This document shows, piece after piece, positions 21,227 through 49,680 of a stretch of DNA of 64,000 bases; position 1 is the first letter of the stretch; each line of letters opens with the position of its first letter. The stretch is from Clostridia bacterium (GTDB taxonomy: Bacteria; Bacillota; Clostridia; HGM11514), in assembly GCA_045586685.1 (NCBI GenBank), contig JAZNAU010000009.1, forward strand, positions 22,420-86,419. The letters are read 5' to 3'. The notes below the pieces were generated by a model. The model was not told the DNA's origin. It ran no database searches and saw only the letters and a list, made by a program, of their open reading frames with translations. The position numbers were made by a program, and so were the translations under genes.

Positions 21227-22657
21227 TTATTTTTGTGTTGCCTTCCACTCAGCATACTGACGTTCAATTTCGTCTTTTACGATCTGAGCACCAGCAAGCT
21301 CTCTCTTATCCCAATGTTTCTGGTAGGTTCCTTCGATATCCTCTACCACACCTCTTTTTAATCCGGTGGTATACTCTGTTACAGAATTCAAATTTGTAAT
21401 TTCTGTTTCTACAGGAGCAGTATCAAATACAAAACCAACATTTTCATCAACCGGTGCTTCTCTGTTCAGACGGTCTGTTTCTTCCCATACGCCTTCTTCA
21501 TAGCCGGGCATTAAGTAAGCAAGCAACTGATTTCCGATTCTGAATTCAGGAATATGATAACCATTTCCTTCGGTAGGTGTAATTCTGTTTCCGTCCTTGG
21601 TGTAGTTTACACCCTCAATTCCGTAAGCCAACAGGTTAAACAGATATTGGTCGGTGGTTACCAGTTCCAAAAGTTTTAATGCACGAACAGGATTTTTTGA
21701 TACACGGTTGATAGCAGTCAATGCACTTTGCATTTCATTTCTTCTTAAAATCATGTCACTGGTAGGTACTGCAATAACATCCCAATCATAGGAAATTGCG
21801 TGTTTTGCTTCTGCACCGGGCAAATGACGGTTATAACGAGAGAACAGTTTTCCTGCCTTCAAATAAGGATTTTCATCAAATACAACGTCCTGAGTAGTAA
21901 TTGCTTTTTCATACCAACGTCTTGCAACGTAATATTGAGGTAACAGTTCTTCCCGTCTGTCGGTTACTTCACCGTCTACAATACAGAAACCGCCCTTGAC
22001 AGGAGTCATGTTTACATCAAACTGGTTGAGTGTCATGCCGCTAATCATCTGCATACCAGGTTCGTTTGGTTTAACTACGTCATAGATTGCTTCCATATCT
22101 TCGTAAGAAGAAATTGATTTTACTTCATCTACCAGATCATATTTTTCAACTTCGTCCTTTTTAAACCATAAACCGCACTGGTGATACATAACCTGATACA
22201 TGGGAACTGCAAAAATCTGGTCATTTAATGTTAATGCATCCCAATACATTTCGTCAAAATAGTCATAAAGTTCGGGAGTTTCGGTTTTCAGAATTTCTGA
22301 CAAATCATAATAAGCACCCTTAAGAGCGTTGCCTTCATACGGATTCTGCCAGTTGGATGTGAACATCAAATCCCAAGAATCATCCTGAGCTGCCATCATC
22401 ATGCTTGTTTTTTGACCAAAATCACCAGGTTGGATAAACTGAATTTCCAAGGTTGCATTGATTTTTTCCAGCAAATACTTATTTACTTCTTCGATTACTT
22501 CATCGTATCCCGCCGGTTCGTCCAGAGCGATAGCCCATACCAGGTTTACCTGTTTGCTCATATCGTCCTGACTTGCTGTTTGCTTTGTTTCTCCGCAGGC
22601 ACAAACGGAAAGTGCCAGCAGTGCTGCCATTGCCATGGCTAACATTCTTTTTACCAT
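21227..22657 (-). CDS. ABC transporter extracellular solute-binding lipoprotein (orphan, no adjacent permease/ATPase)
   Basis: 476 aa; signal plus lipobox LALSVCAC; SBP family 1-like composition. Confidence 0.7.
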   Translation of the reverse strand: MVKRMLAMAMAALLALSVCACGETKQTASQDDMSKQVNLVWAIALDEPAGYDEVIEEVNKYLLEKINATLEIQFIQPGDFGQKTSMMMAAQDDSWDLMFTSNWQNPYEGNALKGAYYDLSEILKTETPELYDYFDEMYWDALTLNDQIFAVPMYQVMYHQCGLWFKKDEVEKYDLVDEVKSISSYEDMEAIYDVVKPNEPGMQMISGMTLNQFDVNMTPVKGGFCIVDGEVTDRREELLPQYYVARRWYEKAITTQDVVFDENPYLKAGKLFSRYNRHLPGAEAKHAISYDWDVIAVPTSDMILRRNEMQSALTAINRVSKNPVRALKLLELVTTDQYLFNLLAYGIEGVNYTKDGNRITPTEGNGYHIPEFRIGNQLLAYLMPGYEEGVWEETDRLNREAPVDENVGFVFDTAPVETEITNLNSVTEYTTGLKRGVVEDIEGTYQKHWDKRELAGAQIVKDEIERQYAEWKATQK

Positions 22658-26821: not shown

Positions 26822-26911
26822 CGATTGAACATTTAGATTTTTAAGGTAACCGATTTTTGAGAAGTTTTACTAATAAATTAAGCAGAACCATAGAGATATT
26901 TAATTTATAAT

Positions 26912-27106
26912 AATTTGACAACTTCGTTGTCATGAATTGGTTTTACCATGAATTGTTGCTGTCGCAACATGAATTGAATTGCCTTAATGCACCCTAAGGT
27001 GCAATTCATGAGCCGTAGGCTTAATTCATGAAATCGCAGATTTCAATTCGTGCCGTCAGGCAATTTATTGAAAAAGCGACTTGTCAAAACAAGCCGCTTT
27101 TTCTGG
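26912..27106. repeat. repeat R, copy 1 (about 195 bp), ending in hairpin terminator
   Basis: near-identical to 30548-30726 apart from one 15-bp indel and 4 substitutions; contains TGACAACttcgGTTGTCA palindrome and multiple ATGAATTG/CAATTCAT octamers. Confidence 0.9.
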
Positions 27107-27120
27107 AAGAACCCAATGGT

Positions 27121-28560
27121 TTAGATGCCACAATTTATTAAGTAATTATGTTTCATCGGTCCCGAGCCATTTCCCAAATCAAGACCTTCTAAAAGTGCAT
27201 ATGATATATATTCTTTCGCTCTTTTAACCGAGTCTTTGAGGTTAAGTCCTTTTGCAAGATTTGATGCTATTGCACTGGAAAGAGTGCATCCGGTTCCATG
27301 TGTGTTTGGGTTATCAATCCTTTTTCCATCGAACCATACAAACTTACCACTTTCATACAAAAGATCATTTGCATCATTTATACTATGCCCACCTTTCAAC
27401 AAAACGCAGCACCCATAGTTTTTCTCAATGAATTCTGCTGCTTTTATCATATCGTCATTACTCTTGATTTTCATATCTGATAAAATTTCCGCCTCAGGAA
27501 TATTGGGTGTCACAACAGTTGCAATGGGTAAGAGTTTTTGAGTTAATGTTTTTACGGCATCTGTCTTCATAAGAGTTGAGCCGCTTGTTGCAACCATAAC
27601 CGGATCTACAACAATATTCTTTGCATTATAAAATTTAAGTCTATCTACAATTACTTTAATAAGTTCGCTTGAGGATACCATCCCGATTTTTACACTATCG
27701 GGAAATATATCTTGAAATACTGCATCAATTTGTTCTTTTAAAAATTCGGGAGTAGTTTCCTCAATCGCTCTTACTCCAAGTGTATTTTGAGCTGTAAGTG
27801 CAGTAATGGCACTCATAGCATAAACACCATTCATTGTCATAGTTTTGATATCTGCCTGAATACCTGCACCACCACTTGAATCACTGCCGGCAATAGTTAA
27901 TACCGTTTTCATTTTGGTGGCAAAGCAGAAGCTTCCGAAATCCTTTATGTAATAATCTGAAATTTCTTTCATCTGCTCTTGACTTAGTTCGTGTTCATCA
28001 TAAACTGCCGCAACCTTAAATCCATCATCTTTAGCAGTTTTAAGTGCATGAACCACATCTTCAAAAACTACAGTTTCTGTTTTTTCTGTACCAAGATATT
28101 CAAGTGCTTTACGATAAATATGAGATGTGGTTTTGTCATAACCTACTTCTGCACAGGAGAATATTTCAGAAAAGTATTCCAGAACCCCCAATCGTTTTAA
28201 CACATCTTCTGCAATAGCTCTGTCCGTCACAGTTGCAACACACATTTTTACACCTTTATAATGTAACCTTTTTAGAAAATCTTTCACACCTGATTTCAAC
28301 GTTACCTTTGTCCGATAAATTTCAGCCACCATATTATTTATATCGTTAACAATTTCTTGGGCAGAAAGATTAACACCATAATGCTCGCGATAATATTCTG
28401 CGGCTTGCTGGAGTGTAAATGTTTTAAATGCTTCTGCAAGGTTTTCTTTGGGTTCTTTCCCAAGTGTTCTTAAATAATCCTCGCCAAACGTGTCCCATAT
28501 CCACATAGAATCTATAATTGTTCCGTCTAAATCAAATATTGCACCCTTAAACACCTTCAA
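27121..28560 (-). CDS. thiD: fusion protein: N-terminal HAD-superfamily hydrolase + C-terminal hydroxymethylpyrimidine/phosphomethylpyrimidine kinase (ThiD)
   Basis: residues 1-200 FDLDGTIIDS... (HAD motif I); residues about 205-479 VLTIAGSDSSGGAGIQADIKT...GTGCTLSSAIA (ThiD ribokinase-fold signature). Confidence 0.8.
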   Translation of the reverse strand: MKVFKGAIFDLDGTIIDSMWIWDTFGEDYLRTLGKEPKENLAEAFKTFTLQQAAEYYREHYGVNLSAQEIVNDINNMVAEIYRTKVTLKSGVKDFLKRLHYKGVKMCVATVTDRAIAEDVLKRLGVLEYFSEIFSCAEVGYDKTTSHIYRKALEYLGTEKTETVVFEDVVHALKTAKDDGFKVAAVYDEHELSQEQMKEISDYYIKDFGSFCFATKMKTVLTIAGSDSSGGAGIQADIKTMTMNGVYAMSAITALTAQNTLGVRAIEETTPEFLKEQIDAVFQDIFPDSVKIGMVSSSELIKVIVDRLKFYNAKNIVVDPVMVATSGSTLMKTDAVKTLTQKLLPIATVVTPNIPEAEILSDMKIKSNDDMIKAAEFIEKNYGCCVLLKGGHSINDANDLLYESGKFVWFDGKRIDNPNTHGTGCTLSSAIASNLAKGLNLKDSVKRAKEYISYALLEGLDLGNGSGPMKHNYLINCGI

Positions 28561-29191
28561 CCACCTGCTTTGTTAATTCTTTTAATTCCGATGTAGCTTT
28601 TTGAATATTGTCTGCAGCAAAAATTGCACTGATAACTGCAACTCCATCTATTCCGCTTCCACTGAGTTGCAAAACATTGCCTGCTCCAATGCCACCAATG
28701 GCAACCACAGGAATGCTTACAGCCTCGCATATTGCTTTAAGTGTTTCATAGCTTACATCATCGGCATCTGCTTTTGAGGCTGTACTAAACACAGCCCCTA
28801 CACCTAAATAATCAGCGCCCATTTTTTCAGCAAGCAAAGCTTGTTCTACCGTTTGTGCGGATACGCCAAGAATTTTATTATCTCCAATGCTATCTCTGAC
28901 CAATCCTGCTTCCATATCCTTTTGCCCTACATGAATCCCATCTGCATTTGCCTTGACAGCAATATCTACATTGTCATTGATAACAAAAGGAACATTATAC
29001 TTTCTACAAAGTTCTTTTATTTCAAAAGCCTCTTTGAGAAATGCTTCATCATCTAATTCCTTTTCTCGAAGTTGAATAAAAGTTGCTCCGCCCCTAAGTG
29101 CTTCTTCTACTTGCTGATAAAGAGTTCTGTTTCCAATCCATGTACAGTCGGTAACAGCATATAAAAGTAAATCTTTTTTATCTAACTTCAT
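28547..29191 (-). CDS. thiE: thiamine-phosphate synthase
   Basis: 214 aa; LLLYAVTD..IQLREK..GADYLGVGAVFST... typical ThiE. Confidence 0.85.
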   Translation of the reverse strand: MKLDKKDLLLYAVTDCTWIGNRTLYQQVEEALRGGATFIQLREKELDDEAFLKEAFEIKELCRKYNVPFVINDNVDIAVKANADGIHVGQKDMEAGLVRDSIGDNKILGVSAQTVEQALLAEKMGADYLGVGAVFSTASKADADDVSYETLKAICEAVSIPVVAIGGIGAGNVLQLSGSGIDGVAVISAIFAADNIQKATSELKELTKQVVEGV

Positions 29192-29999
29192 ATTTCGCTC
29201 CTTTGTTTAACATATCTGCATCCATATTATAAATTGCATCAATTATGCGATTTCTCAAAGTGGAGTTTCCTTCTCCTGTCTTTAAATCTGTATAACCAAT
29301 TTCACCTGCAAGTCCCATCATACAAACTGCTGCTGCAACTGCTTTTGTTTTGTCATTGGGATTGGCTACAGCGAAAGCTGTTGCCAGTGCTGAAAGCTGA
29401 CAACCTGTACCTGTAATTTTACTCATTTCAGGTCTGCCGTTACGGATAACATAGCATTTTTCACTATCTGCCACAAGGTCAATTGCACCTGTAATTGCTA
29501 TAACAGCATTTGCTTTTTGAGAAAAATTTTTCGCAAAAGCTACCATGTCATCAAGATTATCTTCTGTTACTGTGTCAGCTGTATCTGCATCAACACCCTT
29601 TGTCGTTCCGCATCCAAGTGCTAAAGTTTTAATCTCTGAAATATTCCCACGAATAACATCAAACTTAATTGTATTCATAAGTTTAATTGCTGTATCTGTG
29701 CGAAGTTTACTTGCACCGGCTCCTACAGGATCAAGTAAAACTATATGGCCGACTTCATTCGCTTTTACACCTGCAATAAACATTCCCTCAATACTTCTTT
29801 GGTTCAAAGTACCGATGTTGATATTAAGCCCTCCACAAATCGATGTAATATCGGCTACATCCTCCGGTTCGTCCGACATAATCGGGCTACTTCCACAAGC
29901 AAGCAAGACATTTGCTACATCATTTACCGTAACATAGTTTGTGATGTTATGCACAAGCGGTGCTTTTCTCCTTACATTTTCCATACAGTTTCCTAACAT
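29178..29999 (-). CDS. thiM: hydroxyethylthiazole kinase
   Basis: 273 aa; PLVHNITNYV..GSSP.M N-terminus typical of ThiM; AGAGGT RBS. Confidence 0.85.
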   Translation of the reverse strand: MLGNCMENVRRKAPLVHNITNYVTVNDVANVLLACGSSPIMSDEPEDVADITSICGGLNINIGTLNQRSIEGMFIAGVKANEVGHIVLLDPVGAGASKLRTDTAIKLMNTIKFDVIRGNISEIKTLALGCGTTKGVDADTADTVTEDNLDDMVAFAKNFSQKANAVIAITGAIDLVADSEKCYVIRNGRPEMSKITGTGCQLSALATAFAVANPNDKTKAVAAAVCMMGLAGEIGYTDLKTGEGNSTLRNRIIDAIYNMDADMLNKGAKYEVR

Positions 30000-30065: not shown

Positions 30066-30098
30066 AAAAGGAAGCTACCGATTTGGTAACTTCCTAAA
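30066..30098 (-). terminator. TPP riboswitch expression-platform terminator (attenuator)
   Basis: minus-strand hairpin ggaaguuacc-aaauc-gguagcuucc followed by uuuuuuguuu, between the aptamer and the thiM RBS. Confidence 0.7.
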
Positions 30099-30117: not shown

Positions 30118-30215
30118 ACACTATGTATCAGGCATCCCTACGTTGGCATTATCCAAATCAGGTTCTCGGTCGAAGGTCATACCTTCCTCTCAGCCTGTAA
30201 TACAAGCTCCCGTTT
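30118..30215 (-). promoter_or_regulatory. TPP (THI-box) riboswitch
   Basis: minus strand reads ...GGCUGAGAGG...AACCUGAUUUGGAUAAUGCCAACGUAGGGAUG..., matching the THI-element consensus CUGAGA / ACCUGAUCUGGAUAAUGCCAGCGUAGGGA. Confidence 0.9.
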
Positions 30216-30230
30216 ATTAAGTTTAAACAT

Positions 30231-30259
30231 ATTATATCACTTTTCAAAGTATATTTCAA
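30231..30259 (-). promoter_or_regulatory. promoter of the thi operon (TTGAAA-17-TATAAT)
   Basis: hexamers on the minus strand immediately upstream of the riboswitch. Confidence 0.6.
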
Positions 30260-30329
30260 TAGATTTTGATAAATTATTTTAAAGAATATAAAAACTGAAT
30301 AATTAGATGTGTCATCTAAATCATTCGGT

Positions 30330-30530
30330 TTCTATGGTTCCCCCTGTTGGACTCAAACCAGACACGTTTGCAACCTCAATTCAATTTCTCCAACCCGGCG
30401 GCTCATTTCATCGTGTTGTGGCACAGCCCTACGCCGTCGTTGGTTCTTCCGCCGGCAGCACTCCGGCTCGGTCCTCTTTGGTTAACGCCGCATATGCGGC
30501 TGTTTACCCTTAATAATAGTTGGCTTTTGG
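30330..30530. other. GC-rich about 200-nt non-coding segment with several stable hairpins; candidate structured RNA of unknown identity
   Basis: markedly GC-rich relative to flanks; hairpins gccggcagcactccggc and gccgcatatgcggc; only short spurious ORFs. Confidence 0.4.
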
Positions 30531-30547
30531 CTACATAATATTTTAAT

Positions 30548-30726
30548 GATTTGACAACTTCGTTGTCATGAATTGTTGCTGTCTCAACATGAATTGAATT
30601 GCCTTAATGCACCCTAAGGTGCAATTCATGAGCCGTAGGCTTAATTCATGAAATGGCAGATTTCAATTCGTGCCGTCAGGCAATTCATTGAAAAAGCGAC
30701 TTGTCAAAACAAGTCGCTTTTTCTGG
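30548..30726. repeat. repeat R, copy 2 (about 179 bp), its terminator hairpin abuts the 3' end of the CAU tRNA
   Basis: see copy 1; ends ...gcgacttgtcaaaacaagtcgctttttctgg immediately followed by the tRNA CCA end. Confidence 0.9.
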
Positions 30727-30800
30727 TGGGCCTTCAGGGATTCGAACCCGGGACCAACCGGTTATGAGCCGGTTGCTCTGACCAACTGAGCTAAAGGCCC
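30724..30800 (-). tRNA. tRNA with CAU anticodon; the body resembles tRNA-Ile2 (lysidine-modified), elongator tRNA-Met not excluded
   Basis: reverse complement GGGCCTTTAGCTCAGTTGGTCAGAGCAACCGGCTCATAACCGGTTGGTCCCGGGTTCGAATCCCTGAAGGCCCACCA; similarity to B. subtilis tRNA-Ile(CAU) is recalled from memory. Confidence 0.8.
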
Positions 30801-49020: not shown

Positions 49021-49680
49021 CTAAAATAATTGCAGTAATTCAGAAGGATGAGAAATAATCAGGTCAGCACCGTTTTCAATCAATTCCTCCCGTTTTCGAA
49101 AGCCCCACAAAACGCCCACTGTGTAAGCACCCAAGGCTTTTCCTGTTTTCATATCAACTCCCGTATCCCCTACATATACCGTTTCCTCAGGTAAAATACC
49201 AAATTCCTTTAGTACATTTAAAGCTCCTGTGGGATCGGGTTTGATAGGAAGCCCCTCCTGTTGACCGCAACAACTGTCAAATAATTGATTCCCAAACAGT
49301 TTTTCCGTACAAAGTAATGCAGTAGTGTGAGGCTTGTTGGTAACAATCCCCAGCTTAATGCCCTGTTCTTTAAGTTGCGTTAAAAGTGGCATCATACCGT
49401 CGTAAACCTTTGACAAGTAGACAGGATTTTCATTATAAAATTTACGAAATACCGTAATTGCTTTTTGAAAGGTTTCATCATCATCACGATGATGAAGCGC
49501 CAAAAGACGATGAACCAGAATGTCTGCTCCGTTCCCTACCAAATATTTATATTCATTTTCATCCTCCGGTGCCTTTAAACCCACTGTATCCAATGCATTT
49601 TTGGAGCAATAGGAAAGATCCGCAAGGGTATCCACCAAGGTTCCGTCAAAATCAAATAATGTTGCTTTATACATTTTCAC
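49021..49680 (-). CDS. HAD-IA family hydrolase (phosphoglycolate phosphatase-like)
   Basis: 219 aa; FDFDGTLVDT motif I; C-terminal GD.G.D. Confidence 0.75.
   Translation of the reverse strand: MKMYKATLFDFDGTLVDTLADLSYCSKNALDTVGLKAPEDENEYKYLVGNGADILVHRLLALHHRDDDETFQKAITVFRKFYNENPVYLSKVYDGMMPLLTQLKEQGIKLGIVTNKPHTTALLCTEKLFGNQLFDSCCGQQEGLPIKPDPTGALNVLKEFGILPEETVYVGDTGVDMKTGKALGAYTVGVLWGFRKREELIENGADLIISHPSELLQLF

Follow-up and report, generated by a model that had tools for sequence, protein, structure and literature searches.

A probable thiamine monophosphate phosphatase domain fused to ThiD in a riboswitch-controlled operon of a Clostridia bacterium

Results and Discussion

A HAD domain fused to ThiD is a probable thiamine monophosphate phosphatase

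The stretch of DNA analyzed here, hereafter the window, comprises 64,000 nucleotides of a Clostridia bacterium (contig JAZNAU010000009.1 of assembly GCA_045586685.1, forward-strand positions 22,420 to 86,419). Its minus strand encodes a protein, HAD::ThiD, in which an N-terminal phosphatase domain of the HAD superfamily is joined to a C-terminal ThiD kinase domain, as the last of three overlapping genes in the order thiM-thiE-HAD::thiD behind a thiamine pyrophosphate (TPP) riboswitch. The N-terminal domain probably removes the phosphate from thiamine monophosphate (ThMP, also written TMP), which would give HAD::ThiD two functions in thiamine salvage. ThMP is the most likely substrate in view of gene fusions, gene context and a published family.

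In the proposed pathway, the ThiD domain would convert hydroxymethylpyrimidine (HMP) or its phosphate (HMP-P) to the pyrophosphate (HMP-PP), ThiM would phosphorylate the thiazole alcohol, and ThiE would join the two products to give ThMP. The N-terminal domain, a member of HAD subfamily IA (HAD-IA), would then release free thiamine, and a thiamine pyrophosphokinase (ThiN, or TPK) encoded outside the window would convert thiamine to TPP, an ending of the plant and yeast type that would bypass ThiL. TPP in turn would shut off the three-gene operon through the 5' riboswitch and its terminator. The presence of TPK elsewhere in the genome and the absence of ThiL are both presumed.

Relatives of the HAD domain are fused to, or encoded beside, enzymes on either side of the ThMP step

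A search with the HAD domain alone against 1.84 billion representative proteins returned 879 matches at E<=1e-30. The top matches are mostly stand-alone proteins of about 215 aa, and several longer ones are fusions according to Pfam. Among relatives 42-50% identical to the window domain, P0132, P0133, P0167, P0185, P0200 and P0206 are ThiE-HAD fusions, while TPK is found fused in both orders, HAD-TPK in P0141 and TPK-HAD in P0193. Genome locus L035:9986-11266 likewise encodes a HAD-TPK fusion.

Gene context was examined at 80 listed species-representative loci, found with the family alignment, the best match being 77% identical. Loci were binned by the score of their HAD to the window domain, and thiamine genes were counted as nearby if no more than 3 kb away on the same strand. 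Thiamine genes were nearby in 16 of the 16 listed loci scoring 200 bits or more, in 21 of the 30 scoring 160-199 bits, and in 8 of the 34 scoring below 160 bits. By far the usual order in the listed loci is thiM-thiE-HAD-thiD, with the HAD gene occupying the slot between thiE and thiD, a placement shared by the thiamine operons of many Clostridia. A TPK gene adjoins the HAD gene in L034, L042 and L046, and is found elsewhere within the gene cluster in L007, L016 and L020; in L007 and L016 the operon ends in TPK.

Because ThiE makes ThMP and TPK uses thiamine, the step that these partners share is the conversion of ThMP to thiamine. ThMP phosphatase activity is the best explanation for the HAD domain, since it is repeatedly fused to ThiE or TPK and is encoded between thiE and thiD. 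An earlier note on this DNA, made by a model from the letters alone, had offered two hypotheses for the domain. Its first, a route from ThMP through thiamine to TPP, is supported by the loci at 200 bits or more (16 of 16, with HAD between thiE and thiD), by the ThiE and TPK fusions and by the published family. Its second, that the domain scavenges pyrimidine precursors in phosphorylated form, agrees poorly with the fusions to ThiE and TPK and would pit the phosphatase against its attached kinase in a futile cycle.

The HAD is either fused to TPK (P0141, P0193, L035) or, in L034, L042 and L046, encoded beside it with other thiamine genes lacking nearby. Such a pairing would form a two-step module leading from ThMP to thiamine to TPP.

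The domain might instead act on some other thiamine-related phosphate, either HMP-P, HMP-PP or hydroxyethylthiazole phosphate (HET-P), in flux control or precursor export, or the phosphates of damaged or antivitamin analogues, in a housecleaning role. HAD-IA enzymes are often promiscuous, which counts in favor of this alternative, as does the fact that the fusion seen here is to the pyrimidine kinase and not to ThiE. A further point in its favor comes from YZGD of Paenibacillus thiaminolyticus, whose HAD domain is likewise encoded in a TPP-riboswitch thiM-thiD-thiE operon, together with thiaminase I, and is described in PMC5627462 as a pyridoxal phosphate (PLP) phosphatase inactive on TMP; unlike the window protein, YZGD has a Nudix partner, and in YZGD-type operons a separate HAD-IA gene is the proposed ThMP phosphatase (ThMPase). 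Activity on another phosphate, however, leaves unexplained the repeated HAD fusions to ThiE and TPK and the operons with TPK as their last gene. A domain that hydrolyzed HMP-P or HMP-PP would work against the kinase to which it is joined, adjacency in the order thiE-HAD-thiD is a simple explanation for the fusion to ThiD, and the published description of the family names TMP as the compound dephosphorylated. We consider a substrate other than ThMP unlikely.

The HAD domain has intact catalytic motifs and a subfamily IA architecture

The earlier note described a single open reading frame (ORF) holding a HAD domain and a complete ThiD. Both Pfam and NCBIfam bear out the two domains in one uninterrupted ORF, with Pfam placing HAD_2 at residues 8-186 and Phos_pyr_kin at residues 227-469. 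HAD_2 (PF13419) matches at E 1.2e-24, with 87.8 bits against a cutoff of 23.8, and TIGR01509 (HAD-SF-IA-v3) at 38.6 bits against 29.4. Motifs were assessed in two alignments, A1 with 31 HAD relatives 41-62% identical to the window domain, and A3 with 32 fusion proteins. In motif I (F-D8-L-D10-G-T, in the numbering of the 477-aa protein), which supplies the predicted nucleophile D8 and the general acid/base D10, D8, D10 and G11 are invariant in both alignments. Motif II is represented by T108, motif III by K141 and motif IV by the acidic pair E165-D166; D166 is invariant in A1 and T108, K141 and E165 are each at least 90% conserved there, while all four residues are invariant across the fusion clade of A3. 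All four HAD catalytic motifs are therefore intact in the window protein. The AlphaFold model, with a predicted local distance difference test score (pLDDT) mostly of 70-94 over the HAD domain, shows a predicted alpha-helical C1 cap at about residues 17-82, set on a Rossmann-like core between motifs I and II and typical of subfamily IA; helices 17-30, 39-43, 48-59 and 65-82 lie between strands 4-8 and 103-108. Foldseek matches the domain to HAD-IA structures such as 3kbb (TM 0.79).

These assignments leave room for a generic sugar-phosphate phosphatase, or a protein resembling beta-phosphoglucomutase, that has no thiamine role and met thiD by accident. In NCBIfam and the Protein Data Bank (PDB), the named entries that match best are indeed the beta-phosphoglucomutase family, hexitol phosphatase and the phosphatase domain of MtlD. 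The NCBIfam matches among these, however, all fall below their family cutoffs, the nearest relatives are overwhelmingly linked to thiamine genes, as in every listed locus of the highest score bin, and independent fusions have arisen with three different thiamine enzymes. Such a generic phosphatase is thus very improbable.

A second, stand-alone HAD-type gene is found at 49021-49680 on the minus strand (219 aa; MKMYKATLFDFDGTLVDT...). It was dropped as a candidate paralogue of the thiamine-operon HAD, to which it has no detectable relation at E<1e-3. Its product is probably an unrelated phosphatase of the phosphoglycolate phosphatase type, a type assigned by eye.

The C-terminal domain is a predicted HMP/HMP-P kinase

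Phos_pyr_kin matches at E 2e-95, and TIGR00097, the equivalog domain model for HMP-P kinase, scores 346.4 bits against a trusted cutoff of 204.95 while covering profile positions 1-253 of 254. The anion-hole GTGC motif (H419-G-T-G-C-T-L-S-S) is invariant in A3. The fold is ribokinase-like, with ThiD structures 8g1h, 1ub0, 1jxi and 4jjp as the top Foldseek matches to a domain modelled in part at low confidence, and by sequence ThiD 4jjp matches at E 1.4e-75.

Pyridoxal kinases belong to the ThiD family, so that a vitamin B6 pair has to be weighed, a PdxK-type pyridoxal kinase joined to a HAD PLP phosphatase. The pyridoxal-kinase model PRK12412 does match, at 197 bits, and the pyridoxal kinases of B. 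subtilis and S. aureus are found among the structural matches. The PRK12412 score is nonetheless far under its cutoff of 385, whereas TIGR00097 passes its own, and the gene shares a TPP-riboswitch-controlled transcript with thiM and thiE. A vitamin B6 pair accordingly has hardly any probability. The sub-cutoff pyridoxal-kinase models and the TPP-regulated thiM-thiE operon are indirect evidence for a predicted kinase acting on HMP and HMP-P, and not on pyridoxal.

HAD::ThiD is a clean fusion of neighboring genes

The minus strand holds a single ORF at 27121..28560, 479 aa from a TTG codon and free of internal stops. The probable true start is the GTG at 28554, giving 477 aa. We take the gene as 27121..28554 because AGGTGG is found 6 nt 5' of this GTG and because a database protein that is 100% identical, P0001, starts there, with the sequence MFKGAIFDLDG and a length of 477 aa. 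The GTG falls inside the final codons of thiE, so that the two genes may be translationally coupled.

Two genes merged by an assembly or sequencing error, the condition under which the earlier note would have withdrawn its fusion, is a possibility lent some color by the separate HAD and thiD genes that do exist in sister lineages L004-L007. The best 120 clusters of fusion proteins (90% identity), however, are 76-100% identical to the window protein, all 473-483 aa long and all with both Pfam domains. These are at least 120 clusters, drawn from NCBI, ENA, JGI and Logan assemblies; estimates of prevalence rest on them, as the 477-aa fusion family was missing from the matches to the HAD domain among representative proteins, an absence that we put down to a clustering quirk. 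The same in-frame junction occurs in the species-representative genomes L001-L003 and L008, and FGSFCF..K-MKT thus recurs in independent assemblies from several sources. In sister genomes L004-L007 and L016, the HAD stop codon is followed by a spacer of 60-110 nt and then by thiD, which begins MK(MK)TALTIAGSD. In the window, FGSFCFATK reads straight into MKTVLTIAGSD, and the spacer is entirely absent, not just frameshifted. Because the same architecture is present in at least 120 clusters from independent assemblies, an artefact has next to no probability; HAD::ThiD is a clean fusion of neighboring genes.

The fusion would have arisen when neighbors in the ancestral order thiE-HAD-thiD lost the stop codon and spacer that separated them. 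In a rough neighbor-joining tree of HAD domains, built without support values, the window groups with L001-L003, the unfused L005, L004 and L006 are nearest, and the fused L008 falls outside, a pattern that points to more than one origin of the fusion or to its reversal. The architecture had been called uncommon; it is indeed restricted to a few Clostridia lineages, but it is abundant in gut metagenomes and is already in the literature.

A TPP-regulated operon, and points that weigh against the assignment

The features of the operon are collected in Table 1. Overlaps between genes amount to 14 nt for thiM and thiE and 8-14 nt for thiE and HAD::thiD, and the hairpin that follows the aptamer is likely the expression platform of the riboswitch. 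Because a promoter, a TPP riboswitch and terminator hairpins surround thiM, thiE and HAD::thiD, the operon appears to be repressed by TPP and to serve the salvage of both the thiazole and the pyrimidine moiety.

Table 1. Coordinates of features in the window and of thiD-leader RNA elements in related genome loci
Feature	Coordinates	Strand	Basis and remarks
Sigma-70-like promoter	30231..30259	-	TTGAAA, 17 nt, TG-TATAAT; 11/12 consensus matches, extended -10 TG; pattern match only
TPP riboswitch aptamer	30118..30223	-	Rfam RF00059, 61.2 bits vs gathering 54.3, full-length match 1-105
Terminator-like hairpin with U-run	30069..30095	-	11-bp stem then TTTTTTGTTTG; between aptamer and thiM start
thiM (hydroxyethylthiazole kinase)	29178..29999	-	PF02110 E 2.3e-68; NF006830 288.9 bits vs cutoff 180
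thiE (thiamine-phosphate synthase)	28547..29191	-	PF02581 E 3.4e-67; TIGR00693 219 bits vs cutoff 145
HAD::thiD fusion gene	27121..28554	-	477 aa from GTG; mechanical ORF reaches TTG 28560
HAD-IA phosphatase domain	27937..28554	-	Residues 1-206; Pfam and NCBIfam; D8/D10 at 28525-28533, T108, K141, E165-D166
Junction FGSFCFATK	27913..27936	-	Compared with L001-L008 and L016; M215 (MKT...) aligns with stand-alone thiD start codon in sister genomes
ThiD domain (HMP/HMP-P kinase) and stop codon	27121..27912	-	Residues 215-477; TIGR00097, PDB 4jjp, Foldseek ThiD structures
Intrinsic terminator-like hairpin, operon end	27070..27103	-	15-nt arms, 93% complementary, 4-nt loop, then minus-strand T-run
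Direct repeat copy A	26903..27106		Flanks cassette downstream of thiD; 98% identical over 160 nt to 30567-30726, 16-nt indel
Direct repeat copy B	30541..30726		Abuts 3' end of tRNA-Met (30724-30800, -)
thiD-leader RNA	L004:2696-2775	+	
thiD-leader RNA	L005:2100-2177	+	
thiD-leader RNA	L006:10659-10736	+	
thiD-leader RNA	L007:10670-10745	+	
thiD-leader RNA	L016:10669-10747	+	
thiD-leader RNA	L031:14041-14129	+	
thiD-leader RNA	L037:2464-2541	-	

Several points weigh against assigning ThMP phosphatase activity to the window protein. Being joined to a kinase of its own pathway, the phosphatase would have to be specific to avoid the wasteful hydrolysis of HMP-P, HMP-PP or HET-P. None of the NCBIfam equivalog models scores above its cutoff on the HAD portion, where the best named matches are the sub-cutoff sugar-phosphate phosphatases given above. 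Seven TPK sequences, together with two TPK domains of relatives, were combined into a profile that finds nothing at E<=10 in any window ORF of 50 aa or more, and inspection by eye of window translations of at least 140-150 aa recognized no ThiL-like protein; the statement of the earlier note that the cassette holds neither thiL nor a TPK gene is borne out by these same results. The full-length AlphaFold model has a mean pLDDT of 71, with residues 207-267 below 50, and is uninformative on domain arrangement; with a predicted template modelling score of 0.48 and a ThiD start below pLDDT 50, it is equally uninformative on an interface or on substrate channelling. PDB comparisons bear out the two folds singly, and no two-domain HAD-ThiD chain was found in the PDB either by sequence at E<=1e-5 or among the 50 Foldseek matches listed. 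Bacterial enzymes assayed for ThMP phosphatase activity reportedly include those of Anaerotruncus colihominis, Dorea longicatena and Syntrophomonas wolfei. The only link from the window protein to assayed enzymes is the thiM-thiE-HAD-thiD locus of a Syntrophomonas metagenome-assembled genome (L028), at 45% identity.

Relationship to known enzymes

According to the summary in PMC5627462, Hasnain et al. 2016 (Biochem J 473:157) showed that TMP is dephosphorylated by HAD-IA enzymes, whose bacterial genes are fused to thiD or thiE or found in the same operon. Hasnain et al. is also cited in PMC4861732, for the plant ThMPase, and in PMC9544542. The window gene shows the corresponding context, a HAD-IA domain fused to thiD with thiE and thiM on the 5' side and a TPP riboswitch. 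It shares with the bacterial ThMP phosphatases, as they are summarized there, the HAD-IA domain, the thiD or thiE fusion or thiamine-operon location, and a proposed step from ThMP to thiamine ahead of a pyrophosphokinase; it differs in coming from an uncultured gut Clostridia lineage, and the likeness is one of family description and context. The window gene is a further putative member of the class described in 2016, and its interpretation is supported, not new. The novelty implied in the earlier note consequently fails, since both the HAD fusion arrangement and its role were published in 2016, and the same publication removes the possibility, raised there, that the N-terminal domain carries an unrelated known role, as the published role is the one hypothesized.

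Plant TH2/PALE GREEN1 (Mimura et al. 2016, as cited in PMC9544542) is a ThMP phosphatase acting at the same pathway step. Unlike the window protein, it is eukaryotic and was recruited independently. We take TH2 to consist of a HAD-type phosphatase domain fused to a TenA-family domain rather than to ThiD. Links between ThiD and another thiamine enzyme are also seen in yeast THI20 (ThiD-TenA, PDB 3rm5), in the ThiE/ThiD proteins of NF007070 and in plant TH1. The ThiD part of the window protein aligns with THI20 3rm5 at E 3e-50, and NF007070 is matched as well. In contrast to these, the partner in the window protein is an N-terminal phosphatase, proposed to act two steps after ThiD and not in an adjacent reaction. 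The closest solved HAD by sequence is that of MtlD from Acinetobacter baumannii (PDB 7ocn; E 4.7e-15, residues 4-206), which is similarly an N-terminal HAD-IA-v3 phosphatase fused to an enzyme of its own pathway, mannitol-1-phosphate dehydrogenase. Its pathway and substrate are unrelated, however, and the full NCBIfam MtlD model scores only 77 bits against a cutoff of 800.

A candidate thiD-leader RNA in unfused relatives

In genomes with unfused HAD and thiD, the spacer between the two genes contains a conserved element, reading GCGGYRNAYYGGGGGCACCAC...CGC, AUAnAAAA and (A/G)UGC, followed by the thiD ribosome-binding site. This thiD-leader RNA combines an 8-bp outer stem with a loop region in which GGGGGCACCAC is invariant and a tail in which AUAnAAAA...UGC is conserved; seven loci are included in Table 1. 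A pattern scan of metagenome contigs, in which the 3' strand of the stem lay outside the search pattern, found at least 120 stretches, and ThiD is encoded directly downstream in 109 of the 120 listed occurrences with enough downstream sequence. Across 61 distinct sequences, four pairs of the outer stem show compensatory changes (53 cells) and pairing stands at 95%, while sliding the partners by 1-3 columns as a control leaves pairing of only 47-66%.

No Rfam 15 family matches the element at gathering, E<=1 or E<=10, save for a resemblance to DUF805-RNA at 19.8 bits against a gathering threshold of 51, and a literature search for "thiD motif" found no description. Identity with the HMP-PP (thiS-motif) riboswitch was rejected, as there is no U-tract terminator and thiS motifs go with HET-P genes, not with thiD. 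The thiD-leader is thus put forward as a candidate cis-regulatory RNA of thiD, one with no Rfam 15 match.

The window lacks the element, the fusion there having removed the spacer. Conceivably the fusion marks a regulatory rewiring, in which the leader would be a ligand-sensing riboswitch or dedicated thiD regulator, responding to HMP, HMP-P or a related pyrimidine, that the HAD::ThiD clade has given up. We offer this tentatively and regard it as doubtful. If true, it would mean a new regulatory RNA of the thiamine pathway, lost where thiD was welded to its upstream gene.

Flanking repeats and neighboring intergenic DNA

Direct repeats of about 200 nt, at a spacing of 3620 nt, bracket the 3.6-kb thiM-thiE-HAD::thiD cassette. 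In each copy a terminator hairpin accompanies an array of CATGAATTG/CAATTCATG 9-mers, and the repeat was not found in any of the 80 related genome loci. The two copies could recombine and so excise the cassette. In L002:1-5530, whose HAD is about 76% identical, the same tRNA-adjacent site holds a TPP riboswitch, thiC, a gene for a 165-aa membrane protein, a second TPP riboswitch and thiM-thiE-HAD::thiD, with both riboswitches inside a 295-nt repeat that is 93% identical between copies. The window is missing thiC at the site that thiC occupies in L002. The thiamine locus looks recombination-prone.

Between repeat copy B and the thi promoter, just 5' of the promoter, is a GC-rich intergenic segment (about 30290-30530 on the minus strand) with a core of about 160 nt at 30340-30500 that is 58% GC against 38% locally. 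Its predicted fold includes a long-range helix, GGACCGAGCCGGA with UCUGGUUUGAGUCC, and a terminator-like 3' hairpin followed by a U-run, with a folding z-score of -2.3. Known RNA classes were rejected for this segment, which has no Rfam match at E<=5 and is neither tRNA nor tmRNA. The segment is possibly a gene for a small RNA, or a remnant.

Implications for annotation and for thiamine metabolism in gut anaerobes

The importance of the HAD::ThiD fusion is modest, its main practical value being for annotation, and the thiD-leader RNA is the most promising lead to come from it. Public annotation of the fusions (P0010, P0036 and others) reads only [quoted passage not shown], omitting the phosphatase half. 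The step from ThMP to thiamine is often a gap in metabolic reconstructions of gut anaerobes. Recognizing HAD::ThiD, ThiE::HAD and HAD::TPK as one ThMP-phosphatase family would fill that gap, and would flag organisms that complete TPP synthesis by way of free thiamine, which bears on the cross-feeding of vitamin B1 in the gut.

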